IMG/VR virus record: IMGVR_UViG_3300031364_000002
Coordinates: 1 to 57,662 of that record
DNA from: a virus
Taxonomy: Duplodnaviria > Caudoviricetes
Strand: one strand, 5' to 3'
DNA length: 57,662 nucleotides
Of this stretch, positions 25,471 through 54,407 are shown piece after piece. The notes beneath the pieces are model-generated. The model searched no databases, was not told the DNA's origin, and worked only from the letters and a program-made list of their open reading frames with translations. A program made the translations under genes and the position numbers. Within the stretch, counting starts at the first letter, position 1; each line of letters begins with the position of its first letter.

Positions 25471-25542
25471 CTCTTTTCTCCTCTTGCCGGACTCGTGATC
25501 GGCGCTGTTGTTTAATGCCGCTATGGCGGCATATGTCATCTA
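25471..25542 (-). ncRNA. Intergenic structured module M4
   Basis: TAGATGAC-ATATGCCGC-CATA-GCGGCAT-TAAAC, second hairpin GCCG..CACGAGT.CCGGC, then RBS; shares blocks with M3 and M5. Confidence 0.55.
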
Positions 25543-25860
25543 ATACCTGCCTAATTGAGCGTCTCTCAAAAGTTTTGATTCCTCTCCTGGTCGGTGCTCT
25601 AATAACCGATCATACAGATTCCTGCCTTTTACCAGTTTTCCACAAACGCTGAACGTATGCTGACCTGTTTTGTCTCCATAATGACTCGATAAAACAAATC
25701 CTTCAATTATCTCATTGGTGGATTTATCTACATACTTGACATAGCACCCTTCTCTGATAGGCCCGTTTGATTGTATAAAATCAAATTTTTCTTCGGCTTC
25801 TCTCATTTTCTCAGCATATGCGGCTTTCTGTGCCTTGTTTGGTTTCCATCTGTATGACAT
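25540..25860 (-). CDS. Hypothetical early protein
   Basis: AGGAGGAG RBS; ORF. Confidence 0.75.
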   Translation of the reverse strand: MSYRWKPNKAQKAAYAEKMREAEEKFDFIQSNGPIREGCYVKYVDKSTNEIIEGFVLSSHYGDKTGQHTFSVCGKLVKGRNLYDRLLEHRPGEESKLLRDAQLGRY

Positions 25861-25933
25861 CGTTTTTCTCCTCCTGGCCTGGCTTCAGGCTGGCTATGCA
25901 GTTTAATGCCGCCGGAGCGGCATCCGTCATCTA
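25861..25933 (-). ncRNA. Intergenic structured module M3
   Basis: TAGATGAC-GGATGCCGC-TCCG-GCGGCAT-TAAAC...AGGCCAGGAGGAGAAAAA; shares blocks with M1, M4 and M6. Confidence 0.55.
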
Positions 25934-26353
25934 AATACGAGGAATGTATTTTTGGCCAACAACACTCGACGCGTTCTTCCCTATCAGTCCGAGCTGACGA
26001 AGCCGGAGTGCAACCCGATGATTTATCTCAAATGGGCCGCTTAACCCGGCCCTTACAGCACCGAGCTTGTCAACCTTTATCCCTAACGATCCCAGAAAGG
26101 CTACGAAATTCAGATACCTGTATTCCCGGAAGTCCTTGCTATACGTGCAGGCGTAAAATGAAAAACGCCTGTTTCCGCTTGGACGGGAAATACTTTCAAG
26201 GCGGCAAATCATGCGCCCAGACGACACAGCGTCAATCCACCGTCGGGCGTCCTTCAGGAACGTCTCTCTATCGTAGTACTCCTCTGCGTTTACGAGTTTT
26301 TCAATTTCCGCTTCTTGCGCGTCGGTAAGATCGCACCTAATTTTGTATGACAT
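25931..26353 (-). CDS. Hypothetical early protein
   Basis: Start MSYKIR after AGGAGGAGATTAGAT. Confidence 0.75.
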   Translation of the reverse strand: MSYKIRCDLTDAQEAEIEKLVNAEEYYDRETFLKDARRWIDAVSSGRMICRLESISRPSGNRRFSFYACTYSKDFREYRYLNFVAFLGSLGIKVDKLGAVRAGLSGPFEINHRVALRLRQLGLIGKNASSVVGQKYIPRI

Positions 26354-26463
26354 ATCTAATCTCCTCCTTTGACTGTATAGAGACAGTGCCATGGCACAAC
26401 TAAATCACCAGGAGGGCCAAAGGCGTGCAATCCTGTTGGTTCCTCCTGAGTGTGGATGACTGA

Positions 26464-27162
26464 TTATACAACTTCAAGCGGTGTCAGGTTGGTATACGCA
26501 GTTTTCCCATTACTGTACTCCACCGAGTGACCAGATACTTGGCATTTAAATATTACTTTTTTTGCCAACAGTAATTGTGAGCCATCCGGGAATACTGCTT
26601 CCTTCGCCTTATCGATGGATCTGTAAACATAATAACCGCCACCGTGGTCATCAGCCGCTCTCTGCGTCATCCGCTTCCCGGGGATATATTCTGTTTCCCC
26701 GTCGTAGATGGAGTAAAATTTTCCCCCTACCGTGGCTACCTGTTTGTAAGCAATTTTGCTACTACTGGCAGAGGTTTTGATTTTGATTTGTTTAGACCCA
26801 TCGATGACTGCAATAATGTCGCCTACCTCGTCAACTGTTTTGGCGAGTTTTACAATGCGCGGTTTCCAGCTGTCTAGTTTCTCAACCACAGCAGTTTTGC
26901 TGTTGATCCGCTTGCGATCAATACGGTAATACGATTTTCGAGGGTGATTTCCGTATTTGTCACACTCCGTTTCTCTCTGCTGTACAATTACAGTGTTTTT
27001 TGTAACATCGTAAATACTGTAATTCAACGCTGATCCGCGATGTTTCTGGTCAACGTCGCAGTATTCGTGCGGTAACTGTCCACTCTTAAGCGCGAGGGAC
27101 AAAATCGCCCTTCCTTCATTGGCGCCATCGCCTGTTAATTCCCCGTAGTATCCTCTGGTCAT
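26464..27162 (-). CDS. Hypothetical early protein
   Basis: GGAGG RBS; directly downstream of the hammerhead. Confidence 0.75.
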   Translation of the reverse strand: MTRGYYGELTGDGANEGRAILSLALKSGQLPHEYCDVDQKHRGSALNYSIYDVTKNTVIVQQRETECDKYGNHPRKSYYRIDRKRINSKTAVVEKLDSWKPRIVKLAKTVDEVGDIIAVIDGSKQIKIKTSASSSKIAYKQVATVGGKFYSIYDGETEYIPGKRMTQRAADDHGGGYYVYRSIDKAKEAVFPDGSQLLLAKKVIFKCQVSGHSVEYSNGKTAYTNLTPLEVV

Positions 27163-27190
27163 AATTGACCTCCATGAGATAATTTGTTTC

Positions 27191-27253
27191 TGGCCTGCCT
27201 TATCAATGCCGTGCGGCCATTCACGGCAGACGCCGGTTATCCGGCGTTTCGGC
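27191..27253 (-). ncRNA. Type II hammerhead ribozyme (U3-A8 core variant, loop I/3'-tail pseudoknot); module M1
   Basis: GCC-GAAA-CGCCGG(ATAA)CCGGCG-TC-TGCCGTG(AATGGCCG)CACGGCA-TTGATAA-GGC-AGGCCA: all three stems pair perfectly, GUC cleavage triplet, loop TGGCC complementary to tail GGCCA. Confidence 0.88.
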
Positions 27254-27259
27254 TATTAC

Positions 27260-27451
27260 TTACTGTCTACAAAACTCACTCCACAGATCAGGTGTATCCA
27301 GCTTGTTGCCGTCATCATCAAACAAACCGCCGCCGACTCCGCTTGTGTGAGATCTAAAATCGACGCGAATTTCCGGATGGTTTTTTCCAACATACGCCAC
27401 AAATTCCTGGCCGTATCCGTTACAATTGTCTTCTAAAATAACTAATGTCAT
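27260..27451 (-). CDS. First gene of the left early arm, hypothetical
   Basis: Start codon and RBS lie within repeat B. Confidence 0.75.
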   Translation of the reverse strand: MTLVILEDNCNGYGQEFVAYVGKNHPEIRVDFRSHTSGVGGGLFDDDGNKLDTPDLWSEFCRQ

Positions 27452-27546
27452 CTCTAATCTCCTTTTCCTTAACCTTATATAGGTATTATATACCTACTCT
27501 AAATAAAAAGCAAGAGAATATTTGACTATTTTTAAAAAAAATTATA
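27446..27546 (-). repeat. Repeat B, copy 1 (101 bp, perfect inverted copy of 53124-53224)
   Basis: Manual alignment, no mismatch; contains promoter, palindrome, RBS and ATG. Confidence 0.95.
27485..27513 (-). promoter_or_regulatory. Sigma70-type early promoter, left arm
   Basis: TTGCTT-N17-TATAAT, with the palindrome TAGGTAT-ATA-ATACCTA over the -10. Confidence 0.85.
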
Positions 27547-27573
27547 GACTTTTAGAAATAGCGGGATTATACT
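27522..27573 (+). promoter_or_regulatory. Tandem rightward promoters for the replication operon
   Basis: TTGACT(27522)-N17-TAGACT(27545)-N17-TATACT(27568). Confidence 0.55.
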
Positions 27574-27588
27574 AATCAAGAAAAGTCA

Positions 27589-27745
27589 GGGGGACTAAAA
27601 ACAGGAGGGGAGAAGAAATCCAAACTAAAAAATGGCCTCCAATGGGATGGCCCCACAACAGTCTTTGGTCTGGATTCTTCTTTCTGTCCCCCAGAATAAT
27701 GAATTTATCCTTCTGTTGTGGAGCTTTTCAATTGGAGGCTTTTTT
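27589..27745 (+). promoter_or_regulatory. Structured leader / candidate attenuator
   Basis: Two long competing helices; the second buries the GGAGG RBS and ends in a U run. Confidence 0.55.
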
Positions 27746-28057
27746 ATGTCCTATCTAATAAATGCTATCAGCCCTTGTGGAAACTGGATACTTAACAAAA
27801 AACTAACTCAGGAAGTTGGGGCTGAAGCAGCCCTCATAATGACTGAATTAAGCAACCCCAATGAAACCATGAAGGAAACCCCTATCCAGAAAATTCTATC
27901 CATCAGAATTGGTATCTCAGAAGAAAAAGTAATTTTCCTCATCAAGAATCTTGTCAATAAAAAATTACTAACCTGGGATCAAAAAGCTGAAAAGATATGG
28001 GTAAACGTAGAAAAACTTGATACTTTACTATCTGGAGATGATTATGAAGATGCCTAA
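27746..28057 (+). CDS. Small winged-helix-like protein
   Basis: Start MSYLIN after GGAGG; NKKL..EVG.EAALI..EL resembles the N-terminus of the next gene. Confidence 0.6.
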   Translation: MSYLINAISPCGNWILNKKLTQEVGAEAALIMTELSNPNETMKETPIQKILSIRIGISEEKVIFLIKNLVNKKLLTWDQKAEKIWVNVEKLDTLLSGDDYEDA

Positions 28058-29588
28058 TCCCATTACATCAGACCAATATAGACTATTCAGTGTCCCTGTA
28101 TGGAAAAAATTTGGAGTAGGAACAGCTCTTGTTTTGGGAGAGCTTTTTGACCGATATCAGCAACTAAAACAAAACCAAAAATTGGTATACAAAGATGATG
28201 AGTTCTATTTTTTTTACCCAGAAAAAAAATTAGCAGAATTTGTAGGATTCACCCCCCGATCAGTCAGGACATATGTAGCTAATTTGAAAGCTGCAAAAAT
28301 CGTAACAATTCATAAATTGGATGCTTCAACAAAGAATTACTATCAATTCAGTGAAAAAGTACTCAAAGAACTCATGATGGAATACGATGAAAAATATGGA
28401 AAAACATCAAAATCAGAGGAAAAGATTTCCCCTGTAATTTTTAAAGAAATTCCTGAAAAAATAGAGGAAAAGATTTCCCCCATTGAACAAAACCATAGGA
28501 AACCGATTTCCTATCCTATTATAAAAGTAACTAAATTCGTATTAACTAACGTTAATACTAAGGGACTTCTCAGTGAAGTCCCTGATATTGATGAAAAAAT
28601 TTCATCTTGGGAGGATAATCCCTTTCATGAAATTATAGAGTATGCTTTCCAAAGAAATTCCTTTACAAACCAATTACCTACCCAAAGAGGAGAAATTACA
28701 AAAACTCTTCAGAAAGCTTTAATTTATCTCCAGGAAATAAGATCAGGTAAATTTATTTCAAAACATACATGGGACAAAAAATGGTGGTCTTCCCAAAAAA
28801 TAGATGGAGTAGATTTGCATTCTATGGGGATAGACTCCATTAGAAACATAATTGGCCGGGCGGTGGCCAGGTATAGCCGCCTTTTTGAAGAACCTTATTG
28901 GCCAGTAAATAAAAAAACCCTTACACATGATTTCGCCAATTTTTTGTATAACCCCCACACCGGAAAATCCTGGTTTTTATACTGTCTTGCTCACCGGCCA
29001 GAACAGGTACAGGAACGGGTAAAAGAAAAAAATATAGAAAATTTCAAATCTCAGATTGATCTTAGAAATATAAAGTCTGTGGAAGAGTGTCTTGAAAAAT
29101 TTAGAGAGGGGTGGAGTACTGGGGATCTTGAAAATTGGTGGAGATCCCTGAAATATATTCAGAATTGGTATAGAGCCAAAAAGAAATTTTTATCTACAAA
29201 AAATCCAGCAGATAACTGGACCCCCCAATTTGGTAGTGAGGAACTATTTTTTGATCGGGTAAATGAATTTTTTGTGGAGTGGAAAAGCCTTAGCCCTTGT
29301 GCTATAGCTCCAGATGCCGGGGGATGGGAGAGGTTTGAAGAGTGGTGCTGGAAAGAATTTGGGGTAAAGTTTGAGTTTAAAGCTGAAAGAACTCCTGTGA
29401 AAAAAGCAAAAAAGAATGGCCCTACATTTGAGGATTTGACTGAGGAGGAGAAAAAAGAGGTTCAGGAACTGAGAGCAGAAATTGAGTGGGAAATTCTGAG
29501 AGGTAATAGAGCTGGAGATTCCTCCTATGAGGCTACAATTCAATTAGCCATAAAACAGATAATATCTAAACGTCAGAAAAAACTATAA
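28044..29588 (+). CDS. Replication initiator-like protein (N-terminal wHTH)
   Basis: YFFYPEKKLAE..G.T.RSVR..V.NL motif; internal iteron/palindrome cluster; first large gene of the replication module. Confidence 0.65.
   Translation: MKMPNPITSDQYRLFSVPVWKKFGVGTALVLGELFDRYQQLKQNQKLVYKDDEFYFFYPEKKLAEFVGFTPRSVRTYVANLKAAKIVTIHKLDASTKNYYQFSEKVLKELMMEYDEKYGKTSKSEEKISPVIFKEIPEKIEEKISPIEQNHRKPISYPIIKVTKFVLTNVNTKGLLSEVPDIDEKISSWEDNPFHEIIEYAFQRNSFTNQLPTQRGEITKTLQKALIYLQEIRSGKFISKHTWDKKWWSSQKIDGVDLHSMGIDSIRNIIGRAVARYSRLFEEPYWPVNKKTLTHDFANFLYNPHTGKSWFLYCLAHRPEQVQERVKEKNIENFKSQIDLRNIKSVEECLEKFREGWSTGDLENWWRSLKYIQNWYRAKKKFLSTKNPADNWTPQFGSEELFFDRVNEFFVEWKSLSPCAIAPDAGGWERFEEWCWKEFGVKFEFKAERTPVKKAKKNGPTFEDLTEEEKKEVQELRAEIEWEILRGNRAGDSSYEATIQLAIKQIISKRQKKL
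28415..28606. repeat. Iteron/palindrome cluster, candidate replication origin
   Basis: AGAGGAAAAGATTTCCCC at 28415 and 28463; palindromes at 28495-28514, 28539-28558, 28561-28583 and 28590-28606. Confidence 0.6.
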
Positions 29589-29592
29589 TAAT
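29578..29592 (+). promoter_or_regulatory. Repeated AAAAACTATAATAAT promoter motif, copy 1
   Basis: Identical 15-mer at three gene junctions (29578, 34278, 44908). Confidence 0.7.
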
Positions 29593-29606
29593 TAACAGGA
29601 AATACT

Positions 29607-29825
29607 ATGAAATTTATTCCTTTGATTGAAATAAATGAACTTCAAGAAAAACGTCATCATAAATGTGGGCCCCGTTGTTGGTATGCCAAAGGTAAAAAAT
29701 GCAGTTGCTCTTGCGGGGGTAAAAATCATGGAATTTTGAATAGGGAGAATGGAAAAAATGAGAATGGAAAATCAAATGAAAGTAATGGAAATAATAAAAA
29801 TCAATCAGAATCACTATTTGGGTAA
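29607..29825 (+). CDS. Small Cys-rich protein
   Basis: C..RC..A.G..CSCSCGGKNHG motif. Confidence 0.65.
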   Translation: MKFIPLIEINELQEKRHHKCGPRCWYAKGKKCSCSCGGKNHGILNRENGKNENGKSNESNGNNKNQSESLFG

Positions 29826-30297
29826 TGGGAGGTTGACTCATATTTTAATGAAAGAAATGGACTGTTCAACGGGTTGTATATATAATATTTTGAATAGCTT
29901 ATGGTCAAAACATTTAATTGGGAAACCTGGTTTGAATTGGTCAGGAGTGTATTTGACAAGAGATGGAGAAAGGATGTTATCCATTTATTTGAGGCAGTCC
30001 TCTCAGCCACTACTTAGTAAAAATTCTATGATACAACAATTGACTCCCCGTCCTTCCCTTGAAAATTTTATGAAGGTAATAGAATTTAAATTGAGCCTTA
30101 ATGATCATAAAGTTCATTGGAGTAATCTTAATTTTGATGATCTTTTGAGTGGGTTAAAAGAGGAGTTGAAAGAATTGGAAATAGCAATAAATCATCAAGA
30201 TTTCAAAGAAGCTATTTTTGAAGCTGCTGATGTAGGGGCTTGGGCTATGATGATGGCAGATGTATGTTCAGGAAAATTAAAAGAGGAAGAGGAGTGA
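29749..30297 (+). CDS. Hypothetical protein with MazG-like C-terminal helical domain
   Basis: LKEELKEL...EAADV..WAMM pattern; start uncertain. Confidence 0.5.
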   Translation: MEKMRMENQMKVMEIIKINQNHYLGNGRLTHILMKEMDCSTGCIYNILNSLWSKHLIGKPGLNWSGVYLTRDGERMLSIYLRQSSQPLLSKNSMIQQLTPRPSLENFMKVIEFKLSLNDHKVHWSNLNFDDLLSGLKEELKELEIAINHQDFKEAIFEAADVGAWAMMMADVCSGKLKEEEE

Positions 30298-34305: not shown

Positions 34306-35127
34306 ATGATAACAATTTCAGGCACTCCTTGGGAAAAACACGATGGGATTTGGGTAAAAAGAGAGGATTTGTGCAGCCCTTATCCTGGGCCCTCATTTTC
34401 CAAAATTAGAGGGGTAGAGCAACATATAATAAAATTGATGAATTCCTCATTTCCTCCCACCTCTATTGGAGTTGTGGATTCTCGACACAGTAAGGCTGGG
34501 TGGGGAGTTAGCTATATTTGTCAACTTATGAAAATTCCGGTTACTGTATTTTACCCTATCCTGAAAGGGGAAACAGAATTAAGACCATTTCAAAAAATGT
34601 GTGATAAATTAGATGCTGGATTGGTAGGGTTACCAGCTACTAAAAGTGCAGTGTTGTTTTATCAGGCTCGCAAACTATTTCAAAATTGGGATTCTTATGG
34701 GTATCTAATGCCAAATGGATTGAAATTAAGAGAATCTGTTTTAAGTACTGAAAAAGAATTGTTAAATTACACTCCAGAAAATTTATTGAGAGGAACCTGG
34801 ATTATTTCAATATCCTCCGGGACAATTGCTGCAGGAGTGCTTTCTGGGTTGACAAAATTTAAATTTAAGGGTAAAATTTATCTCCATATGGGTTATAGTC
34901 GTAGCAAAAAAGCTGTTAAGAATTATTTAAATTCTATTGGGCATAATCTACAATGTGAAGATTTAGATTTAGAGCTTATTGATGAGGGATATAATTACAA
35001 GGATCGGGTAGATAATAAATGTCCTTTTGCATGCAATCCTTATTATGATCTTAAGGCATGGAAATGGGTTACAAAATATAGAAATAAATTTGAGTCCCCA
35101 ATAGTATTTTGGAATATAGGTAGTTGA
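34306..35127 (+). CDS. PLP-dependent fold-type-II enzyme (ACC deaminase / D-cysteine desulfhydrase-like)
   Basis: VKREDL...SKIRG (Schiff-base Lys), SSGTIAAG, NPYYDLKAW, VFWNIG. Confidence 0.82.
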   Translation: MITISGTPWEKHDGIWVKREDLCSPYPGPSFSKIRGVEQHIIKLMNSSFPPTSIGVVDSRHSKAGWGVSYICQLMKIPVTVFYPILKGETELRPFQKMCDKLDAGLVGLPATKSAVLFYQARKLFQNWDSYGYLMPNGLKLRESVLSTEKELLNYTPENLLRGTWIISISSGTIAAGVLSGLTKFKFKGKIYLHMGYSRSKKAVKNYLNSIGHNLQCEDLDLELIDEGYNYKDRVDNKCPFACNPYYDLKAWKWVTKYRNKFESPIVFWNIGS

Positions 35128-35128
35128 A

Positions 35129-36184
35129 ATGAAAAGATTGAAAACAGGATTGAGTATTAGGGGAGATAGTTATTATTGTCCACTTTCTTTTCAACTTGAT
35201 ACCTACTGGAATTGTACCAATAAGTGTGAGCACTGTTATTTACGTCGTTTGAATAGAACCTGGGGGGAGGATTTACGACCTTTAGATTTAAAAGAATTCC
35301 ACAAAAAAATTGTTAATGGAATGAAAAACTCTAATCCAAAAACCTCATTGGGATGGGCTATTAAACAAAAGAAAACAATCCGGTTAGGAAACAAAACTGA
35401 TCCTTATCAACCAGCAGAAGAGGAATTTGAGGTTACAAAACAAGTTATAAAATTGTTATTACACTACAACTTTTCTTTTGTAATCCAGACAAAATTTACA
35501 GAGCTTGTTAATCGGGATTTAGAGATATTGAAAAAAAAGCCAGATTGGGTATCTGTTATGCCTATAATCACTCCAGGATTAGAAAGGGATTGGGAGTTAT
35601 TCGAGCATGGAACCACAACTAATCCTATAGAGCGTTTAAAACACTGTCAAACCTATATGAAAAACAATATAAACGTGGGGGTAAACGGAGAGCCTTTTAT
35701 TCCCGGTTATCATACAATTCAAAATTTTAGAGATACTATGAAAGTGTTGAAACAATATAACATAAAAAGTTATAATACTTACCATCTACATTTTAATGAT
35801 CTTGTAGCTAAAAACTTCCTAAGAATTGGGTTGGATATTGAAAAAATCTGGTATATGAATCAGGACATTCAATGGAAAGCAATTTTGAGGAAATTGATAA
35901 ATATCGCTGCTGAATATGATATAATATTGGGTTGTCCAGACTTTGTAAATTCTGGAGGTTATCAAGAAACTGTGAATACGTGTTGTGGTTTATCAGTCCC
36001 GAACCCTTGTACTTTCAATGTAATTCAATGGAAGAAATTATTTATAGCGGGGAAGACTTCAAAGGAGATTGTGGAGAAAACCTATGACCACATTGGTAGT
36101 AAAGAAGATGCCTTGGGTATAATAGAGGGGACTACTAAGAATTTCTATACATTGAAAGACATAGATCTAAAGGAAAAGATATGA
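35129..36184 (+). CDS. Radical SAM enzyme, spore-photoproduct-lyase-like
   Basis: CTNKCEHCY (CX3CX2C), TDPYQPAE, IQTK; extra TCCG near the C-terminus. Confidence 0.88.
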   Translation: MKRLKTGLSIRGDSYYCPLSFQLDTYWNCTNKCEHCYLRRLNRTWGEDLRPLDLKEFHKKIVNGMKNSNPKTSLGWAIKQKKTIRLGNKTDPYQPAEEEFEVTKQVIKLLLHYNFSFVIQTKFTELVNRDLEILKKKPDWVSVMPIITPGLERDWELFEHGTTTNPIERLKHCQTYMKNNINVGVNGEPFIPGYHTIQNFRDTMKVLKQYNIKSYNTYHLHFNDLVAKNFLRIGLDIEKIWYMNQDIQWKAILRKLINIAAEYDIILGCPDFVNSGGYQETVNTCCGLSVPNPCTFNVIQWKKLFIAGKTSKEIVEKTYDHIGSKEDALGIIEGTTKNFYTLKDIDLKEKI

Positions 36185-36918
36185 ATAATTTATTAAAAAT
36201 TACTTATGATAATGATTTAGTTTTGAATATTCCAAAATTGGAAAATTTAAATCAACAAATATCAGCTAACATAGGTCAAGTGTTTTTTATCAAATCTCAT
36301 AATTCTGATATCAGAAAAGAAATGGGGGCTCTAAAAGCAATGAGTATTTACCTGAAAAATAATGGATTTTCATTAAAAGAAAAAACATTTATGGATGTTA
36401 TGGCTGGTTGCGGATTTTCTGGTAGAATATTTAACAAATATCTTTTTCCTGAAAAAATAATACTCAATGATTTAGATTCAACTTGTGTTTCTATTTTGAG
36501 AGAAAATTATACTGACAAAGAAATCACTAACCAGAATATTTTTGATATAGATTTTCAGGGCATAATTCCATTTATAGATTTCAATAATTTTACAATTAAA
36601 AAAAGTTTATTCTGGGAATCTGTATTTGCCCACATTAAAACAGATTGGGCTTTGTATACAGATAGTGCCTGTTATGGATTTGGAATGGGTAATTTGAAAA
36701 GTTATGGAGTTGAAACAGAAATAGAATATTATGAAAAATGTGTCAATCCATTTATATCCAAATATGGATTTTACGTACAAGCTATTTGTAATTTTGGTCA
36801 TGCTTCTGTGATATTGATTACAAAAACAAAATTAAGTAAAATTGATATAATACCTACATTAAACATAACCTGGAAAACAGAAGAAATTAAAACATCTATA
36901 TTTTGGGAATTATTGTAA
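36181..36918 (+). CDS. Atypical class I SAM-binding (methyltransferase-fold) protein
   Basis: FMDVMAGCG motif I and ILNDLD; FIDFNNF where DPPY would be expected. Confidence 0.6.
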   Translation: MNNLLKITYDNDLVLNIPKLENLNQQISANIGQVFFIKSHNSDIRKEMGALKAMSIYLKNNGFSLKEKTFMDVMAGCGFSGRIFNKYLFPEKIILNDLDSTCVSILRENYTDKEITNQNIFDIDFQGIIPFIDFNNFTIKKSLFWESVFAHIKTDWALYTDSACYGFGMGNLKSYGVETEIEYYEKCVNPFISKYGFYVQAICNFGHASVILITKTKLSKIDIIPTLNITWKTEEIKTSIFWELL

Positions 36919-43760: not shown

Positions 43761-43925
43761 CCATTATTTTTCCACCATAAACCACTATATATAGTGTATT
43801 TCCCTCTATATACAGTGTAGTAATAGGTACGTAGTACCTATCTACCTACTATATAAGGATTTACTGAGCCAAATAACGGTGATTTAAGACACCACTAGAT
43901 ATGGGTGGTAAAACTATACATTTGG
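43761..43925 (+). repeat. Repeat A, copy 2
   Basis: Reverse complement of 17462-17626 with 3 mismatches. Confidence 0.95.
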
Positions 43926-43988
43926 TAGAGTAAAAGCAGTCCTATGAGGCTCTATATAAACAAGAATTTTTGAGGAAAGGAAGAAAAA

Positions 43989-44941: not shown

Positions 44942-45415
44942 ATGAGTTTTGAAGATGATGTAAAAATTAACAAATACAAATTGGATGTAGCCTGTGAGGA
45001 ACAACCTTGTCTTATACTCTCCTATGAGGAGCCATTAGCCAGTTTGAAGGGGGATAGGGACAGGCTTTATGATCGTCTTAATCTGGTAACTGCTGAGTTG
45101 GAATTGGAAATTAGAAAAAATCCGCCTGAAGGGGTAAAACTCACAGAAGGGACAGTAAAATCTTTGGTTTTATCCTCTCCTAGAGTAACCAAAATTCAAA
45201 CAAAACTTAATGAAACAAAAAAAGAAATTTATCAGTATGAAGCTGCTGTAAATGCTTTTGAACACAGGAAGCGGATGCTTGATAATTTAGTAAAACTATG
45301 GACCTCAAATTATTACTCTGACCCTGACCGGTATGTATCCCCATCGGATGAAGCCGGTAAAGATATAAGGGGAAATCTCAACAAGGAAAGAAGGCAGGAG
45401 GAAAAAAATGCCTAA
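44942..45415 (+). CDS. Recombination mediator (UvsY-like)
   Basis: Helical; KLTE..V...V and AFEHRK.ML.NL patterns; upstream of SSB and RecA. Confidence 0.6.
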   Translation: MSFEDDVKINKYKLDVACEEQPCLILSYEEPLASLKGDRDRLYDRLNLVTAELELEIRKNPPEGVKLTEGTVKSLVLSSPRVTKIQTKLNETKKEIYQYEAAVNAFEHRKRMLDNLVKLWTSNYYSDPDRYVSPSDEAGKDIRGNLNKERRQEEKNA

Positions 45416-46571
45416 AACAAAAAAGCGGCGGGTTTCATCAGCCCGGTATGATGAATCCTACAACACAAGAAACAAAGGGGGATTTGACAGACCGGATATT
45501 ATTGATTGGAAAAAGGTAGCTGATGCCTTGGGAGTGGATTCCATAAAGTTCATGGAATTCAAAAAAGGCCCTAATCGAGTCAACATTATCCCGTTTGAAG
45601 TAAAAACAAAAAATCACCCTCTTGTCCACAGTGGAAATTTGGAGGTAGGGGATCTTGATTATGGACTGGATATTTGGGTTCATAGGAGCATCGGGGAAAG
45701 TGAAGGGGATTATATTTGCCTCAAACAGAATTTTGGAAAAAGATGCCCTATATGTGAAGCAGCAAATGCTGCCTATAAAGCCAAAAATACTGATATGGGA
45801 AAAGCACTCAAGGCAAGCCGGAGGATGTATTACAATGTCCAGATAATAGACCACGGAGAGGCAAAAGATTCTTTGGAAGTGCTCAGAACTAGTCATTTCT
45901 TTTTTGAAAAAGAGCTGATTGAGGAAGCTACAGAGATGGGAGATGGAAAAGCCCCTGTAGATTTTGCTGATATTGAAAACGGAAAAATGATCAAGTTCCG
46001 GGGATCGCAGGAAAAATTCAACGGACAGGAATTCATTAAACCTAAAGCTTTTTCTTTGGTGGAACGGGAAGAAGAGTTGGAGGAGGGTATCATTGATGAA
46101 GCTGTAAGTTTTGATCAATTTCTGATTATTCCTACAGTTGAAGAACTGGAAAAAGTTCTCCATGGGCTCCCTGAAGAAGAGGAGTACGATGATGATGAGG
46201 AGGAGGAAGAAGAAAAAGAAAAATCATCTAAAAAGTCTCACAAAACAGAAGTTGAGGAGGAAGAGGAAGAAGAAGAGGAAGAAGAAGAGGAAGAAGAAGA
46301 GGAAGAAGAAGAGGAAGAAGAAGAGGAAGAAGAAGAGGAAGAAGAGAAGTCCTCTATCCCAAAAAAGAAATCCAAACCCAAACCTAAGAAAGAAGAAGAA
46401 CCAGAAGAGGAAGAGGAAGAGGAAGAAAAATCCTCCAAAAAACCTACCTCTAAGAGCAAGTCCAGTAAGGGTAAATGCCCACATGGGCATAACTATGGGG
46501 AAGATGCTGATAATTTCGATGATTGTGAAAAGTGTGATCTTTTTGATGATTGTTGGGATTATGCGGAATAA
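45408..46571 (+). CDS. Single-stranded DNA-binding protein (gp32-like) with poly-Glu linker and Cys-rich tail
   Basis: H...C....CPICE zinc motif, long acidic tract, terminal CPHGH..G...C..C....C. Confidence 0.75.
   Translation: MPKTKKRRVSSARYDESYNTRNKGGFDRPDIIDWKKVADALGVDSIKFMEFKKGPNRVNIIPFEVKTKNHPLVHSGNLEVGDLDYGLDIWVHRSIGESEGDYICLKQNFGKRCPICEAANAAYKAKNTDMGKALKASRRMYYNVQIIDHGEAKDSLEVLRTSHFFFEKELIEEATEMGDGKAPVDFADIENGKMIKFRGSQEKFNGQEFIKPKAFSLVEREEELEEGIIDEAVSFDQFLIIPTVEELEKVLHGLPEEEEYDDDEEEEEEKEKSSKKSHKTEVEEEEEEEEEEEEEEEEEEEEEEEEEEEEEEEKSSIPKKKSKPKPKKEEEPEEEEEEEEKSSKKPTSKSKSSKGKCPHGHNYGEDADNFDDCEKCDLFDDCWDYAE
46253..46346. repeat. (GAGGAAGAAGAA)n tandem repeat encoding poly-Glu
   Basis: Seen directly in the sequence. 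Confidence 0.9.
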
Positions 46572-48727: not shown

Positions 48728-48778
48728 AGGTTATTGATTTGGAAGACATTGAACAATTATATAAGGGGTTTTGTAAGA

Positions 48779-49990
48779 ATGATTAAAAAATTAAATCTTT
48801 CTAATTTCCAAACTCACAAATGTACAGAAATAAGATTTCATCCAGGAATAAATGTTTTTAGGGGTACTTCTGATCATGGAAAATCTGCAATTATTAGGGC
48901 TATTCGATGGCTGTATGAGAATCGACCCTTGGGGGATGGGTTTGTCTGCAATCAAATTGGAGAGGATGAGGCTTGTGAAGTTCAGATTTTAATGGGTTCC
49001 GGAGAAAAAATTCGACGGCTAAAAAAGAAAGGGCAAAATGAGTACTTTCTGAACGACAAGGAATTTGAAGTTGCTGGCAGAGAAGTTCCTACTGAGATAG
49101 TAAAAGTATTAAATTACAGCGATGTAAATATTCAGCTTCAGTTTGATCCCCCATTTCTTGTACTTTCCCCTCCTGGGGAGGTGGCCAGGTTTTTTAACTC
49201 GGTGGTAAAAATTGATTATATAGATAGAGTTTTGTCTCTTGCAGCTTCAAAAAAACGAAAGAACAATGAGAATTTGAGAAATAAGACTGAGCTACTTGAG
49301 GAATTAAAAAAGAAAGAAGATAAATTTAATTGGATAAAGAAAGCAGAAGAAATTTACATCAGAACTACTAAATTAACAAAAGAGAAAGATTCTATCAAAA
49401 GCCAGTTAGAAAAAATCTTTTCTGGTATTCAGAATATTCAGTACGCTGTAAGGATAATAAATCAAAATCAGATCAAAATCGAAGCAGAAGACATTTTAAA
49501 ATCGATTGAGAAAAGAGTTGAGAAATTTGAAAAGTGTAAATCCATAATTTCTAGTGGAGAAAATCTTGTGTGCTCTTTTAATAACAAAGAATTAATAGTA
49601 AAAAATAGAAATAATGTAAATAAAGCTGAAAATTTATGGAAAGAATTGAAGGAAATAGAGACAACTAAAGAGAATACTGAATCAAAAATTACAAAAATTA
49701 GGTTTAATTTTACTAATTATGAAGGACTGATTAGAATATCTAATGAATACAAAACAGAAAAACTAATAGAATCAGAAAAAATTACAAAAAATTTGATTGT
49801 TTTTATTGAAAAAAAGAGTGTAATGATAAAGGTAATAGGAATTTTACAGAAATTTATAGACGAATTCTCTGATCTATCAGAAGAAATAAACATCTCTTCT
49901 GAAACAATTGAAAAATTAAGTAAAGAACTACCAAATATCTGCCCCACTTGTGGGCAGCCTTGGCCAAAATATAAAGGGGAGATCGTATGA
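48779..49990 (+). CDS. sbcC: SbcC/Rad50 N-terminal half
   Basis: NFQTH, G.SDHGKS Walker A, Q-loop, coiled coil, CPTCGQ zinc hook at the C-terminus. Confidence 0.88.
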   Translation: MIKKLNLSNFQTHKCTEIRFHPGINVFRGTSDHGKSAIIRAIRWLYENRPLGDGFVCNQIGEDEACEVQILMGSGEKIRRLKKKGQNEYFLNDKEFEVAGREVPTEIVKVLNYSDVNIQLQFDPPFLVLSPPGEVARFFNSVVKIDYIDRVLSLAASKKRKNNENLRNKTELLEELKKKEDKFNWIKKAEEIYIRTTKLTKEKDSIKSQLEKIFSGIQNIQYAVRIINQNQIKIEAEDILKSIEKRVEKFEKCKSIISSGENLVCSFNNKELIVKNRNNVNKAENLWKELKEIETTKENTESKITKIRFNFTNYEGLIRISNEYKTEKLIESEKITKNLIVFIEKKSVMIKVIGILQKFIDEFSDLSEEINISSETIEKLSKELPNICPTCGQPWPKYKGEIV

Positions 49991-50853
49991 AATTTATAGT
50001 TACTGCTGATTGGCACTTACGATCTGATTTGCCACGTTGTCGTAGAGATAAGAATTGGATAGAAACTCAAAAAAAGATTCTGGATTGGCTCTATAAAATC
50101 TACAAAGAATCAGAATCTACTTTGATTTATGTAGTGGGAGATGTTTTTCACACCTCCTCTGAGTGGGGAGTTCTATCATTAGTTTTAGCTGAAATATCTA
50201 AATTTGACAATATAATAATCATTCCCGGGAATCATGATTTGAAATATCATACCCAAATTAAGAACACCCCTTTTGAAATAGTCCAGTGGTGGAACAATGG
50301 AAAAATAAGATGGGGTTTTACTGAGCAGAATGAAGTTGAATTGTCTGATATAAACAACCTTATTATAGATCCTGTTCAGCTCATTCATACGCTTGTGTGG
50401 AAAAAAGAATCCGACAGACCTCATCCAGATGCCGGAGGGATTGTATCTGATGAACTTTTCAAAAGGTATCCAAAAGCAAAATGGATTCTTACTGGAGATA
50501 ATCATCAATCTTTTCACATAGAAAAAGAGGGGAGCCATATAATAAATCCCGGATGTCTTATCCGTCAAAAAGCTAATGAAATTGACTATGTCCCCTGTGT
50601 GTATTTAGTTGATACTGAAGCAGAAGCAGTAAAAAAAATACCAGTTCCTGATGATGAAAGTATTTTTGATGACACCTATCTGAAGGAGTCAAATGAGAGA
50701 GAGGAGCAAATTGCTGCTTTTGTATCCTCATTGAAAAACAATAGTAGTATATCTCTAAGTTTTAGAGATAATGTAGAAGATCATTTGAAAAAAGGGAACA
50801 TAGATCAGGGTACAAAAGACTTGATTATAGAAATAATGGAGGAATGTAAATGA
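49987..50853 (+). CDS. sbcD: SbcD/Mre11 nuclease
   Basis: ADWH, GDVF, GNHD, GDNH, NPG motifs. Confidence 0.92.
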   Translation: MKFIVTADWHLRSDLPRCRRDKNWIETQKKILDWLYKIYKESESTLIYVVGDVFHTSSEWGVLSLVLAEISKFDNIIIIPGNHDLKYHTQIKNTPFEIVQWWNNGKIRWGFTEQNEVELSDINNLIIDPVQLIHTLVWKKESDRPHPDAGGIVSDELFKRYPKAKWILTGDNHQSFHIEKEGSHIINPGCLIRQKANEIDYVPCVYLVDTEAEAVKKIPVPDDESIFDDTYLKESNEREEQIAAFVSSLKNNSSISLSFRDNVEDHLKKGNIDQGTKDLIIEIMEECK

Positions 50854-51272: not shown

Positions 51273-51881
51273 ATGGAGCTATCTAAAGTTAAATCTAGAA
51301 TAGATGAAGCCAAAGGAGAAAAAAAGGTTCTTTTTAATTCCATAAAAAATACTGAGTTAATAATTCTAGAGACAAAAGAACGATCAAAAAGTATAGATAA
51401 AGCTCAAGCTTTTTTTCAAATGGTAGCTAAAGAGACTCAAGACAAACTCGTTTTTCACATTGAACATATTGTTCAAGAGGCCATAGAAGCATGTTGGCCA
51501 GACACTTATACTTTTAAGTGTGAATTTGAACCGGGTAGGGGGAAAATGGAAGCTAGGCTATTTTTGCTACAAGACGGAAAGGAAATTGATCCCCGGGATT
51601 CTGTGGGGGGAGGCCTGGTGAATATAACAGCTATTGCTTTGAGATTGGCTGCTTGGAGCATGGGAAAAACAGATAATGTTTTAATTATGGATGAACCGTT
51701 TACTGCTCTGAGTGTAGATTTGCAACCAATAGCTGCTGAGATAATTAGTCAAATAACAAAAGAATTAGGGGTACAAATAATTATGGTAACCCATAACACA
51801 TCAATGATTGAGAAAGCAGATCGAATATTTACAGTAACAAAAAATGAAAAAACAAGAATATCCAAAGTAAAGGAGGAATAG
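51273..51881 (+). CDS. sbcC: SbcC/Rad50 C-terminal half
   Basis: SVGGG signature, LIMDEP Walker B, VTH H-loop. Confidence 0.88.
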   Translation: MELSKVKSRIDEAKGEKKVLFNSIKNTELIILETKERSKSIDKAQAFFQMVAKETQDKLVFHIEHIVQEAIEACWPDTYTFKCEFEPGRGKMEARLFLLQDGKEIDPRDSVGGGLVNITAIALRLAAWSMGKTDNVLIMDEPFTALSVDLQPIAAEIISQITKELGVQIIMVTHNTSMIEKADRIFTVTKNEKTRISKVKEE

Positions 51882-51884
51882 GAA

Positions 51885-52169
51885 ATGATACTCAAAAATG
51901 TAAGCTGCCCTTGTGGAAGGGGGTTTGATGAAAAAAATAAAAATGTATGGGTAAAAGAAGATGGATTTGATGAAGGAAAAGGAAAACGTCTTGTTTGTGT
52001 ATACTGTGGTCATGTATTTCATCAATTTTACGTTCCACAATATAAAAAAGGTCCTCACGAAGAATTTATAAGAAAACATCCAAAAGATCATCTCTCTAAG
52101 AAGCAAAGAAGAAAACAAAGAGAAAAACAGAAAGAAGACCTCAAAAAAGCTCTTATCTATTCAAAATAG
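51885..52169 (+). CDS. Zinc-ribbon protein
   Basis: CPCG...CVYCGH; AGGAGG RBS. Confidence 0.7.
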   Translation: MILKNVSCPCGRGFDEKNKNVWVKEDGFDEGKGKRLVCVYCGHVFHQFYVPQYKKGPHEEFIRKHPKDHLSKKQRRKQREKQKEDLKKALIYSK

Positions 52170-52205
52170 TATAAGAGCCCCTATGCTTTCTATTAGGATG
52201 GTAAA

Positions 52206-52436
52206 ATGATAAAGAAAACAAAGAAGATAAGCCTAAATGAAGACATGCTAGAAGTATTTATTGCTTATTCAGACTCCAAAAGAATAACTCTCAGCCAGTT
52301 TGCTGAATCTGCCATGGCAGGAGAAATTAGGCGGCGATGTAAAGAAAAAAAGAAATGGATTAAAGCCTTGGAACTAGCTGAGGAAGCGGCTTTGGATTCT
52401 CTTGTAGATCGGCTAAAAGAGAGAAGAAAAATTTGA
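52206..52436 (+). CDS. Ribbon-helix-helix-like small protein
   Basis: KKISLNE beta strand followed by two helices (TLSQFAE.A). Confidence 0.55.
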   Translation: MIKKTKKISLNEDMLEVFIAYSDSKRITLSQFAESAMAGEIRRRCKEKKKWIKALELAEEAALDSLVDRLKERRKI

Positions 52437-53128
52437 ATAATAAGATTAATGTTGTTCACTTGATTGATAATCTCCTATTTATGAAAAACTTGGAAACTAA
52501 TGCTTTCGATTTGGTTTTGGCAGATCCCTGGTATGGAATTGGTATGTTAAAAAATGATAATACTGGATTTGCCAAAAGGAGACACCATCAGATATTAGCC
52601 AAAGGAGTAGACGATAGTGCCTTTCAAGATAATATTCCTCCTGAAGAATTTTTTACCGAATTAAAAAGAGTATCAAAATATCAAATTATTTGGGGTGGGA
52701 ATTATTTTGGGGACTATCTTGGAAAATGTGTTGCTCCTATCATATGGGACAAGGGAACTGGAAAAAATTATTTTGCTGACGGGGAAATGGCTTGGACTTC
52801 CTTTCTGGATGGGTGCTTAAGAATATTTCATCATCAGTGGTGTGGTTTTTATAAAGAATCCGAACAGGGAGTAAAAACCATACACCCCTGTCAGAAACCA
52901 ATAGAATTGTATCATTGGATATTTAAAAAATTTAGTAAAAGATACCATATTAAATCTGTTTTTGATCCCGGAGTAGGGTCTGGTTCATCCCGAATTGCGG
53001 CTTATGACTATCAATTGGATTATACAGGTTGTGAAATAATTCCGTCAACGTGGAAAGCCCAGGAAGAGCGTTTTAAAACCTATATCAAAACAAATCCATT
53101 TAATCTTTCTTATCCAGATAAATTATAA
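52433..53128 (+). CDS. N6-adenine/N4-cytosine DNA methyltransferase (beta class)
   Basis: DPWY (DPPY-like), IIWGGNYF, HPCQKP, FDPGVGSGS. Confidence 0.9.
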   Translation: MNNKINVVHLIDNLLFMKNLETNAFDLVLADPWYGIGMLKNDNTGFAKRRHHQILAKGVDDSAFQDNIPPEEFFTELKRVSKYQIIWGGNYFGDYLGKCVAPIIWDKGTGKNYFADGEMAWTSFLDGCLRIFHHQWCGFYKESEQGVKTIHPCQKPIELYHWIFKKFSKRYHIKSVFDPGVGSGSSRIAAYDYQLDYTGCEIIPSTWKAQEERFKTYIKTNPFNLSYPDKL

Positions 53129-53224
53129 TTTTTTTTAAAAATAGTCAAATATTCTCTTGCTTTTTATTTAGAGTAGGTATATAATACCTATATAAGGTTA
53201 AGGAAAAGGAGATTAGAGATGACA
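53124..53224 (+). repeat. Repeat B, copy 2
   Basis: Perfect reverse complement of 27446-27546. Confidence 0.95.
53157..53185 (+). promoter_or_regulatory. Sigma70-type early promoter, right arm
   Basis: TTGCTT-N17-TATAAT; palindrome at 53174-53190. Confidence 0.85.
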
Positions 53225-53527
53225 ATAGCCCTAGTACATACGCAGTATGACAACAAACACCTTGACGAGGTAAAAAACCTAATGATGTCATTAGGCACGC
53301 CTATTATACATGCCGTATGGATGGAGTGCTATCAAATGTATGCAGCTCTCGACGGATGCCATAGGCTGAGAGCAGCTCAGATGCTTGGCATTACTCCTAT
53401 TATAGAGGAGGTAGAGTATAGCGATGACATGGCCTCTACCGTTACAGGATACGATGGCGACGATGATTATATGATCTCAGAGATTTGTGATGATTGTATC
53501 AAATCATCAATCCTATATTTCAAATAA
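53219..53527 (+). CDS. ParB/Srx-like small protein, first gene of the right arm
   Basis: P.I......ALDGCHRL.AA..LG motif. Confidence 0.7.
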   Translation: MTIALVHTQYDNKHLDEVKNLMMSLGTPIIHAVWMECYQMYAALDGCHRLRAAQMLGITPIIEEVEYSDDMASTVTGYDGDDDYMISEICDDCIKSSILYFK

Positions 53528-53597
53528 GCCGAAACGCCGGAGAGATCCGGCGGTAAACGACAATGTCGGGCACAAGTCCGACAGGAGGAGATTAGAG
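53528..53597 (+). ncRNA. Intergenic module M5 (5' half of hammerhead plus M4-like hairpin)
   Basis: GCCGAAACGCCGG...CCGGCG identical to M1, then TAAAC..TGTCGG-GCACAAGT-CCGACA and RBS. Confidence 0.6.
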
Positions 53598-54338
53598 ATG
53601 GAACAAAAATTAATTTTTGTTGATGTTGTAAATGACTCAATTACTCTAAAATGTATGCCTGTTTTAGATCCTGATTTTACAACATTGGCCACCACGATCT
53701 GTTCGAAAGCCAAGACAACTTACAGCGTTTGTACTATGTTGTCTTGGCAATATAATATGGCGTGGTGGCAAAGCTTGTATAATAGAGTTTTCTATTTTGG
53801 GGGAGTTCCTGAAACGGAAAAAAATAAAGCTATTTTTACATCATTTTTTGAAACGCAATATTATCCTATAGATTTTTTAAATAGCGAAACACCCACTATT
53901 GTATCTCAATTTTTTAGGACTATGCAAGCGATTCAGTACGGCAATCTTGACCTGTATCAACAAAGATTAATCATGGTTAAAGTTGATGAGTCTTTACTGG
54001 ATGAACACCTGGTGATATCCTCGGTTGGATATCATGGAGAAGAAGTTATTTGTGAGGAAGACGATATATGCAAACCTGACGAGTTTGACGTATTTAATAC
54101 AAGATTGGAGGGGGTTTACTATACCTATGATAGATTCCCTTTTTCCCCTCAAATTAATTTAAAGGCTCCTGCTAATGGGGTTCTTAAATTTTGGAAAAGC
54201 ATAATCCTGAAGGAGTATAATAATTACTATGGCCATACGGCTACTATTCTTTTTGGGGATGGGTACAGCATATTAAATACATTTTTAAAAAAGAGGAGGA
54301 AAGAAATAAATTTTGAAGAATATAGCTTTGTAAAATGA
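53598..54338 (+). CDS. Hypothetical protein
   Basis: Start MEQKLI after AGGAGGAGATTAGAG. Confidence 0.75.
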   Translation: MEQKLIFVDVVNDSITLKCMPVLDPDFTTLATTICSKAKTTYSVCTMLSWQYNMAWWQSLYNRVFYFGGVPETEKNKAIFTSFFETQYYPIDFLNSETPTIVSQFFRTMQAIQYGNLDLYQQRLIMVKVDESLLDEHLVISSVGYHGEEVICEEDDICKPDEFDVFNTRLEGVYYTYDRFPFSPQINLKAPANGVLKFWKSIILKEYNNYYGHTATILFGDGYSILNTFLKKRRKEINFEEYSFVK

Positions 54339-54359
54339 GTAAAGATATTGACAATGTTT

Positions 54360-54407
54360 GGATACCGCTTCGGCGGCACTGATGAGGCAGGCCAGGAGGA
54401 GAAAAAA
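54360..54407 (+). ncRNA. Intergenic module M6 (3' half of hammerhead)
   Basis: CCGC-TTCG-GCGG hairpin, CA-CTGATGA-GGC-AGGCCA, then RBS. Confidence 0.6.

Follow-up and report, generated by a model that had tools for sequence, protein, structure and literature searches.

The window analysed here is the whole 57,662-bp stretch of a single IMG/VR virus record (IMGVR_UViG_3300031364_000002; 37.8% GC genome-wide), and our subject is six intercistronic spacers, M1 to M6, that separate small genes in two arms of that genome, gA1 to gA5 on the left and gB1 to gB3 on the right. We found that all six spacers have one layout in common: a stop codon, a GC hairpin, a short single-stranded linker, a second hairpin, an AGGAGG-type ribosome-binding site (RBS) and a start codon. 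M1 is a type II hammerhead ribozyme, M5 and M6 are chimeric and stand on either side of gB2, and the two genes between M1 and M3 are conserved out of step with their neighbours. Our reading, to which we give a little better than even odds (about 0.55), is that the spacers are the punctuation modules of two accessory-gene operons and that genes have been exchanged from module to module.

Spacer anatomy and the M1 hammerhead

The two arms comprise the following features, each arm being listed in the direction in which its genes are read.

27442..27546, minus strand: repeat B, left copy; 104/105 identical to 53124-53228; leads into gA1
27260..27451, minus strand: gA1, ORFan of 63 aa that opens the left arm; without Pfam or PHROG match
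27259-27163, minus strand: M1 spacer, between gA1 and gA2
27185..27255, minus strand: M1 type II hammerhead; complete, U3-A8 core, RF02276 match
26464..27162, minus strand: gA2, 232-aa ORFan cassette gene, GC 45.4%; no Pfam or PHROG family match
26466-26354, minus strand: M2 spacer; two hairpins (CUCAGGAGG..CCCUCCUGG and GUGCCAUGGCAC), AU-rich linker, RBS context AGGAGGAGATTAGATATG
25931..26353, minus strand: gA3, 140-aa ORFan cassette gene, GC 49.4%; no family match
25933-25861, minus strand: M3 spacer; TAGATGAC, first hairpin (H1) 25923-25906, TAAAC 25905-25901, second hairpin, CAGGCCAGGAGGAGAAAAA, RBS
25540..25860, minus strand: gA4, 106 aa, widespread small-protein family, DUF7699-like; own Pfam score below the cut-off
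25542-25471, minus strand: M4 spacer; TAGATGAC, H1 25532-25515, TAAAC 25514-25510, second hairpin (H2) 25503-25486 with loop CACGAGU, RBS
25198..25470, minus strand: gA5, 90-aa Cys-rich protein; phrog_15341 (unknown function), E 7.8e-22; repeat family D3
53124..53228, plus strand: repeat B, right copy, inverted relative to the left copy; leads into gB1
53219..53527, plus strand: gB1, 102-aa ORFan; no Pfam or PHROG match
53525-53597, plus strand: M5 spacer; hammerhead 5' half GCC-GAAAC-stem III (53528-53552), GTAAAC (53553-53558), GACAATGT
53598..54338, plus strand: gB2, 246-aa ORFan between two hammerhead halves; no family match
54336-54407, plus strand: M6 spacer; GTAAAG..GACAATGT, H1-like hairpin 54363-54378, then hammerhead 3' half, RBS
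54408..55079, plus strand: gB3, pentapeptide-repeat protein, GTG start; PF00805, E 4.7e-46, and a PHROG match

The spacer between gA1 and gA2 carries a complete ribozyme. Rfam 15 scans (the whole window at the gathering threshold and at E<=10, plus two focused spacer scans at E<=10) matched RF02276 on 27254-27189 (minus strand) with 47.8 bits against a cut-off of 37, over model positions 1-66 of 66, and a subfamily model, R1, gave M1 78.1 bits. Three helices surround the core, which is open at stem II; the core itself, UUGAUAA, has U3-A8 in place of C3-G8, the GAAA and the GUC triplet are present, and UGGCC of loop I pairs with GGCCA of the 3' tail in a 5-bp pseudoknot. Passages of Perreault et al. 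2011 (PMC3088659) report that the U3-A8 covariation occurs in nature and that cores with it are active in vitro, and give the pseudoknot of loop I with the 3' tail as a feature of type II hammerheads.

When M1 was aligned with four hammerheads of an unrelated phage record (G001, described under the last heading), 98.3% of cells were paired over 25 pairs, and compensatory changes fell in 12 of these, including two of the five pseudoknot pairs. None of 500 shuffles reached the observed pairing or covariation, and sliding the 3' partner by 1-3 columns lowered the pairing to 21-39%. By the model match and this covariation, M1 is a bona fide type II hammerhead, as the first-pass annotation of this DNA had supposed for at least part of the spacers. 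Cleavage is predicted after GUC, between 27229 and 27228, so that in the common layout the two hairpins of M1 are stems III and I and its linker is the cleavage site. A weak promoter-like site (9 of 12) lies over the 3' half of M1 (27206-27179, minus strand).

M3, M4 and M5 share a hairpin-UAAAC-hairpin-RBS layout, with a linker of (U/G)UAAAC plus 6-11 nt. The hairpin before UAAAC in M5 is hammerhead stem III, not H1; as RNA, M5 continues with G-UAAAC, GACAAUGU and a hairpin, its 3' part being H2 (53565-53582, loop CACAAGU) and an RBS identical to that of the repeat-B leader. Between M4 and M5 the pairing of H2 is kept via one compensatory change (C-G versus U-A), and the folds of the unit are stable, with z-scores of -2.5, -2.7 and -6.0. 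M6 as RNA runs GUAAAG..GACAAUGU, a hairpin 17/19 identical to that of M3, and CUGAUGA-GGC-AGGCCAG; this hammerhead 3' half (CTGATGA-GGC-AGGCCAG, 54379-54395) has the canonical C3/G8 core. The RBS context of M2, AGGAGGAGATTAGATATG, recurs in M5 and in the repeat-B leader. A promoter scan found no promoter-like site in M2-M6, and the terminator-like hits in the spacers were all on the opposite strand.

Some reading frames run into the spacers. In two relatives (P0003, P0004) gA2 lacks the stop codon of the window, and its frame extends for 27 codons into the M2 equivalent; seven residues at the end of the extension, GDLVVPW, equal the in-frame translation of the window, and the first 19 differ. 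Hence, the 3' hairpin region of M2 is conserved and its 5' part has been replaced. The ATG inside TAGATGAC of M4 opens a frame in phase with gA5 (a 113-aa open reading frame (ORF), 25539-25198, minus strand), and the frame that starts from the equivalent ATG of M3 is short and not in phase with gA4; both are probably by-products of the shared sequence.

No model identified the other spacers as ribozymes. In the focused scans M2-M6 gave no hammerhead, pistol, hatchet, twister-sister or RAGATH match; in none of the Rfam scans did a family come near its cut-off for them, and the snoRNA or sRNA matches that did appear were at chance level. R1 gave M5 11.1 bits and did not list M6, M3 or M4. M5 is without CUGAUGA, stem I and the U at position 16.1, and M6 is without GAAA and stem III. 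The idea that M3-M6 are ribozymes thus found no backing from Rfam, RAGATH families included, nor from R1, and of the processing signals that the spacers had been proposed to be, only the one in M1 is predicted.

Three catalytic interpretations were considered and rejected. M5 scored 26.2 bits on Twister-P5 (RF02684) against a cut-off of 37.6, and five L1-strand model positions of pseudoknot T1 are deleted and its L4 loop, GCACAAGU, differs; passages of PMC5408937 describe T1 as a pseudoknot between L1 and L4. A hammerhead split between M5 and M6 would have an insertion of ~800 nt in the strand joining stems III and I, G at position 16.1 and no possible stem I. Because the insertion with gB2 occupies the strand that should bear the cleavage site, the two halves cannot act together. 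M3 and M4 as permuted hammerheads (UAGAUGA..hairpin..UAAAC for CUGAUGA..stem II..GAAAC) have G12, C3 and U4 changed, are without stems I and III and match no model.

A second model, R2, was built from M3, M4 and M5; it found only these three in the window, M3, a training sequence, scoring 72.8 bits. In 135 other loci (1.87 Mb) R2 gave nothing convincing apart from four genome loci picked by the pattern itself, and R1 and R2 together found no hammerhead and no two-hairpin module in 91 loci around relatives of the terminase large subunit (TerL) or the methylase. A relaxed M3/M4 pattern had 0 matches in 2.9 million IMG/VR viral contigs and 4 chance matches in 185,579 genomes. The hairpin-UAAAC-hairpin module is so far private to this phage. 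The hammerhead 5'-half pattern occurred at 32 viral loci, 11 of them true type II hammerheads by R1 and none M5-like, and the TTGATAAGGCAGGNCA pattern had at least 118 matches, of which those listed were all coding coincidences except one further G001 hammerhead.

Both arms open with repeat B, a 105-nt match with one mismatch that spans the RBS, the ATG and two more codons. The first-pass annotation had both arms beginning with the same promoter block; the inverted pair is there (104/105), at 105 nt and not the 101 nt given. Its layout is TTGCTT-17-TATAAT, an overlapping palindrome, TAGGTAtataaTACCTA (TAGGTA-N5-TACCTA), then TATAAGG, the RBS and ATGACA. Repeat B is promoter-like and may function as a promoter; its -35 hexamer matches only 3/6, which is why the consensus promoter scan did not list it. 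The palindrome followed by TATAAGG occurs at only four sites in the genome, all in the copies of repeat B and of a second duplicated regulatory block, a 174-nt inverted repeat (17453-17626, minus strand, and 43761-43934, plus strand; 96% identical) that lies upstream of a 523-aa gene (17276-15705) and of the clamp-loader gene at 43989. This restriction to four sites suggests that one regulator serves all four palindrome-bearing promoters. The label 'early' that the first-pass annotation gave to the arms is a supposition, and its description of them as mirror images went too far: the left copy of repeat B is at the divergent region, and the right copy, ~25.6 kb away, is embedded in the plus-strand gene array. 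Past M4 and M6 the genes follow closely on one another and such spacers are absent.

Mosaic spacers and discordant gene conservation

Sequence is shared between the spacers in pieces. All eight inter-arm blastn matches at E<0.1 fell in repeat B or in the six spacers, and by blastn and alignment the pieces are those that the first-pass annotation had described, with M5 (53528), M6 (54360) and the gene at 53598-54338 where it had placed them and with the hammerhead 5' and 3' halves present as sequence in M5 and M6. M3 and M4 are identical at 28/34 positions up to TAAAC, and M4 and M5 at 30/37 (CACRAGTCCG..GAGGAGA). M6 shares 19/19 (CAGGCCAGGAGGAGAAAAA) and 17/19 (GGATRCCGCTYCGGCGGCA) with M3 and 20/22 (CGGCAYTGATRAGGCAGGCCAG) with M1; M5 shares 17/18 with M2 and 15/15 (AGCCGAAACGCCGGA) with M1. 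This last match is where identity resumes after the stop codons of the first genes, as proposed, CCGGCG following after a differing loop; the first genes themselves are unrelated, gA1 and gB1 giving no BLASTP alignment at E<=100. In scans of both strands of the whole genome, GGCCAGGAGG, CAC.AGTCCG and GCCGAAAC were found in the spacers only, twice each, and TAGATGAC at three sites, two of them in spacers.

The pieces meet at two junctions. One lies in the 3' arm of the first hairpin, where TCCGGCGG is common to M3 and M5 and CGGCGG to M5 and M6, so the suggested switch points around CGGC are indeed there, within hairpin arms. The other is directly after TAAAC, at the end of the M3/M4 identity. 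The homologies at these junctions are microhomologies of 6-8 nt, not long tracts. Judged by their composition, M5 and M6 are recombinant modules, each combining one half of a hammerhead with one half of the second module type, and recombination may be what made the mosaic.

The two differences in the 22-nt match of M1 and M6 are core positions 3 and 8, U..A in M1 and C..G in M6. This argues for the descent of M6 from a core that once worked. The genome has GACAATGT at two places only, one on either side of gB2; as a direct repeat it is weak by itself, as 9% of spacer shuffles share some 8-mer.

The mosaic was also present in a second assembly. Among the public runs listed as containing the sequence there was no RNA run; the best match is labelled a salt-marsh metagenome and was taken as the probable source run; its independent assembly yielded one 2154-nt contig over 25322-27475 (M1-M4) with zero differences and an even depth of 12.6-13.4, a 101-nt stretch of the repeat being at double depth. 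Hence, the arrangement is not an assembly artefact of the record.

The genes of the arms differ in how far they are shared. Exact look-ups of 30 window proteins in a 15-billion-protein collection found 19; of these, the products of gA2 and gA3, which lie side by side between M1 and M3, are the only ones with mates of at least 90% identity on foreign contigs. The mates of gA2 are 97.4%, 90.9% and 90.5% identical, on contigs of 11808, 43295 and 7437 nt, respectively, and those of gA3 are 91.4% identical, on contigs of 43295 and 7437 nt. Among 5.8 billion proteins the nearest TerL is 59% identical and the only homologue of gA1 64%; gA4 has 66 other homologues, many with PF24766, the best 85% identical and on a different contig. 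Because gA2 and gA3 have such close mates while TerL, gA1 and gA4 do not, the gA2-M2-gA3 block looks horizontally shared among otherwise distant phages. The genes gA1-gA3 have a GC content of 44-49% versus 37.8% for the genome, and among the arm genes only gB3 has a Pfam family match and only gB3 and gA5 have PHROG matches.

Contigs of three runs were compared to 22000-29999. One run, X2, contains a relative at strain level, with 2 differences over the 229 nt of 27722-27950. A 321-nt X2 contig follows gA4 and M4 as far as the C of TAAAC at 25510, beyond which come 37 letters unmatched in the window; a 30-mer of this variant was absent from the viral contigs scanned and from the window. The X2 breakpoint after the TAAAC of M4 and the near-identity of gA2 and gA3 alone elsewhere suggest that the genes around the spacers vary. 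Uncovered bins in X2 and a further run, X3 (e.g. 24670-24936), were left out of the evidence.

Further observations concern single arm genes. A stretch of gA5 (25209-25366, minus strand) consists of 9-nt periodic repeats that encode a Cys-rich C-x-x array (CSRCFRCFHC...). The DGCHRLRAAQ motif of gB1 is ParB-like by eye only. Atlas gave weak leads for gB2 only (a DUF3289/DUF6402-like neighbourhood) and none for gA2. The repeats of gB3 (54464-54913) have a 15-nt period, and a short paralogue lies ~1.2 kb downstream (55655-55864, plus strand) with a similar N-terminus (ILYSG.F.SDK.CLEDA).

A proposed mechanism and its alternatives

On our reading the six spacers would be intercistronic punctuation of two accessory operons, each started by its own copy of a duplicated, regulated promoter. 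Self-cleavage of M1, were it to occur in vivo, would give an upstream cistron whose 3' end is the stem III hairpin and a downstream cistron headed by a 5'-OH, followed by the hairpin of stem I and a standard leader. Because the cut would leave fixed ends, the expression of each gene would be insulated from its neighbours. M3, M4 and M5, which have no ribozyme core, would probably serve as stabilising hairpins or as a host RNase site, perhaps at UAAAC. Since unrelated genes of this AT-rich genome are separated by recurring copies of the same GC-rich pieces, crossovers there would yield viable products, and accessory genes could be gained, lost and swapped from module to module with the RecA/gp32/SbcCD-type machinery of the phage, as proposed for the PeSL elements discussed below. 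The reciprocal chimeras M5 and M6 around gB2 would be the expected trace of an insertion between two module types.

The genes for such a machinery lie in the rightward array.

45408-46571: gp32-like gene, PF08804
46638..47867, plus strand: RecA/UvsX-like recombinase, PF00154, E 3.3e-17
48734-50853: SbcCD-like genes, AAA_23 and Metallophos

A phage RecA had been invoked for the exchange in an integrase-free system, and both parts of that statement agree with our scans. The RecA/UvsX-like protein is a candidate for the engine of exchange. The tyrosine integrase profile PF00589 had no match in six frames of the window and matched all 14 control genomes; Resolvase (serine recombinase) and RVT_1 (reverse transcriptase) likewise had no match in six frames, and no integrase, resolvase or reverse transcriptase was found among 40 window proteins scanned against Pfam. 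Near the C-terminus of the gp32-like protein, 12-nt repeats (46173-46442, plus strand) encode a long acidic stretch rich in Glu. The SbcC/gp46-like ATPase seems to come in two pieces, an AAA_23 N-part (48734-49990) and an SMC_N C-part (51273-51881), both on the plus strand, with the SbcD-like gene (49987-50853, plus strand) and two small ORFs between them.

Several points weigh against exchange at the modules. Apart from the 105-nt promoter, the shared tracts measure 6-8 nt at the junctions and 15-37 nt overall; the spacers are therefore only putative homology handles, such tracts being short and marginal for RecA-type exchange, and microhomology or illegitimate joining is at least as likely. 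The hairpin-UAAAC-hairpin module is known from three copies, all in one genome, and cleavage and processing are predictions. That gA2 and gA3 sit together on the same foreign contigs is deduced from equal contig sizes (43295 and 7437 nt); their mates are known as proteins, and clustering at 90% conceals relatives just under that threshold. Breakpoints at the modules, which the first-pass annotation had made a test, came to one, in the X2 contig at the TAAAC of M4; this contig has a depth of 3.8 and could be chimeric. The other loose ends in X2 and X3 lie at 24542-24548, a plain gene boundary with no module. Hence, variation is not confined to the modules, and that of the relatives is also compatible with ordinary gene-boundary mosaicism. 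Exchange is thinly supported.

A bolder form of our reading would make the RNA-processing units and the DNA-exchange units the same thing, with cassettes bounded by halves of cleavable modules and with the hammerhead and the hairpin-UAAAC-hairpin both as insulators and as crossover sites. Each travelling gene would then carry a 3' hairpin from the upstream side and a 5' hairpin and RBS on the downstream side, and gB2 would be the trace of a cassette that had gone in where the ribozyme has its cleavage site. We offer this form tentatively and lean against it.

Descent with decay, in which an ancestral tandem array of hammerhead plus RBS was duplicated and eroded and the modules played no role in exchange, strikes us as rather unlikely. 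It would fit G001, where the intact state is seen as four hammerhead+RBS modules flanking one or two genes each, and the failure of M3-M6 in every ribozyme model; the canonical core of M6 against U3-A8 in M1 also speaks for old copies. However, uniform erosion would not leave perfect patches (19/19, 15/15, 104/105) abutting unrelated sequence, which is the signature of crossover or conversion, nor M5 and M6 as reciprocal chimeras of two module types, nor gA2 and gA3 at least 90% identical on contigs without a close TerL. A quite improbable alternative is that the unit of M3, M4 and M5 is an undescribed functional RNA, whether self-cleaving, an RNase or protein site, or a translational operator. 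All three copies retain the layout and UAAAC, M5 with a first hairpin of another sequence; H2 has its compensatory pair, the folds are stable (z -2.5, -2.7, -6.0), M5 has the sub-threshold Twister-P5 match of 26.2 bits, and the unit adjoins a hammerhead, the context in which RAGATH motifs were found. But no Rfam family reaches its cut-off, the T1 partner of a twister is deleted and the L4 loop differs, the pattern drew 0 matches in the viral contigs and only chance ones in the genomes, R2 had no convincing match in the 135 loci, and three near-identical copies cannot establish covariation.

A site-specific cassette system, integron-like or with another recombinase acting on palindromic hairpins, is very improbable. 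The imperfect palindrome at the 3' end of each gene, in one orientation behind one promoter, is superficially attC-like, and integron elements are reported in phages in passages of PMC9892861, but Phage_integrase, Resolvase and RVT_1 are absent from the six frames and the 40 Pfam-scanned proteins, the hairpins of 16-18 nt are far below the size of attC, and the junctions are microhomology-like. That repeats produced a chimeric contig with a mosaic appearance is scarcely credible: repeats of 105 and 174 nt do break short-read assemblies, but the independent 2154-nt contig over 25322-27475 shows no differences, with depth 12.6-13.4 and the repeat doubled, and the mosaic pieces are shorter than k-mer trouble in assembly would make.

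Punctuation modules with exchange between them remain our preferred reading, and the idea we offer with it is that a ribozyme module would make a gene portable by standardising its leader, the same module being the place of crossover with no integrase needed; half-ribozyme chimeras are the kind of scar to be expected from such exchange. If true, this would link small self-cleaving ribozymes with PeSL-type modular shuffling, two separate literatures, and orphan ribozyme halves would become a search image for exchange hot spots in phage genomes. If not, the locus would still be a clean natural case of ribozyme decay beside an intact copy.

Genome setting and comparison with known systems

The ends of the window form a terminal direct repeat (1-144 vs 57519-57662, 144 nt, 99% identity; repeat family D6). 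Hence, the record is probably a complete genome of ~57.5 kb, circular or terminally redundant, although its source class is linear and 88% complete. Outside the arms, its genes are as follows.

From ~27.45 kb leftward: small ORFs, then terminase small subunit, terminase large subunit and structural genes
From 27.63 kb rightward: primase, SNF2 helicase, DnaB, family A polymerase with a uracil-DNA glycosylase (UDG) domain, clamp loader
Further on in the rightward array: gp32-like single-stranded DNA-binding protein, RecA/UvsX-like and SbcCD-like proteins, methylase

The picture is of a lytic phage with its own set for recombination-dependent replication. Among the replication genes, a cluster at 34306-38330 (plus strand) has weak matches to pyridoxal-phosphate (PLP) enzymes and radical-SAM proteins and may be a DNA- or nucleotide-modification module. 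Among known phages, blastn with both arms gave no match except for a pentapeptide-repeat gene. The best TerL relative in IMG/VR is 55% identical, and no IMG/VR relatives of the 523-aa protein or of gA2 were found; an Rfam scan of the 12 nearest IMG/VR relative loci gave only a tRNA, and no homologues of arm proteins were found in any locus retrieved.

Hammerheads flanking variable phage genes and PeSL-type module shuffling in T4-type phages are both already in print, as far as the passages cited here go. Hammerheads between phage genes have been known since 2011, and what they are for is still called speculative. In passages of Perreault et al. 2011 (PMC3088659) multiple hammerheads in prophages flank individual genes of non-constant identity and possibly cut long phage transcripts. 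M1 resembles them as a type II hammerhead with a loop I/3'-tail pseudoknot and U3-A8, placed between cistrons of variable small genes. Unlike in those passages, only one of the six spacers here is an intact ribozyme, the others being half-ribozymes and a second hairpin module, and a gene between a hammerhead 5' half and 3' half, not seen there, is a feature of this phage. In the literature searched, seen in part, an array of ribozyme-derived, mostly non-catalytic, chimeric modules with a gene between ribozyme halves was not found, and a search on hammerheads as recombination sites returned no paper mentioning hammerhead ribozymes among the matches listed.

The PeSL elements offer the closest likeness on the side of DNA exchange that the cited passages describe. 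Exchange between flanking elements there gives a chimeric element and a mini-circle (passages of Arbiol et al. 2010, PMC2839356), and shuffling of such modules is described in T4-type phages (passages of Comeau et al. 2014, PMC4122927). The spacers share with PeSLs, as described there, a conserved module of ~70-100 nt from stop codon to Shine-Dalgarno sequence and start, GC stem-loops, and a place next to ORFans in a plastic region of a phage with its own recombination machinery. A module with a stem-loop next to ORFans is thus found in both; a promoter and terminator per module is not, as PeSLs each carry a sigma-70 promoter and a terminator and the spacers have no promoter and no U-tract. 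The conserved element here is a ribozyme or its remnant, acting, if at all, on RNA, and mini-circles were demonstrated for PeSLs, while the present system is known from its sequence.

Integron elements are reported in phages (PMC9892861, in part), and the arms resemble attC arrays in their promoter-proximal small genes of one orientation, each followed by an imperfect palindrome. They differ in having no integrase, much shorter hairpins, and microhomologies rather than a conserved crossover site at the junctions.

Synthetic ribozyme insulators of the RiboJ type place a hammerhead and a hairpin before the RBS and remove upstream context, so that a gene is expressed alike anywhere. The insulating role proposed for M1 is similar; those parts are engineered, and a natural role here would follow only from the cleavage predicted above.

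A natural counterpart is G001, a phage record of 56,674 bp and 58.6% GC (behind locus L123; loci L136-L138) with no protein similarity to the window at E 1e-5. At ~22.7-25.1 kb (minus strand) it has four intact tandem type II hammerheads, all with the rare U3-A8 core, flanking one or two genes each; every one comes after a stop codon and is followed by one and the same RBS context (AAACCACGGAGGTGT..ATG). The hammerheads belong to the same subfamily as M1 (UAGCCGAAAC..GUCU..AUUGAUAAGGCAGGYCA), with U3-A8 and a covarying pseudoknot. Unlike in the window, all four modules are intact, with no mosaic or half modules seen. The G001 array is a clean, uneroded counterpart of the array in the window.

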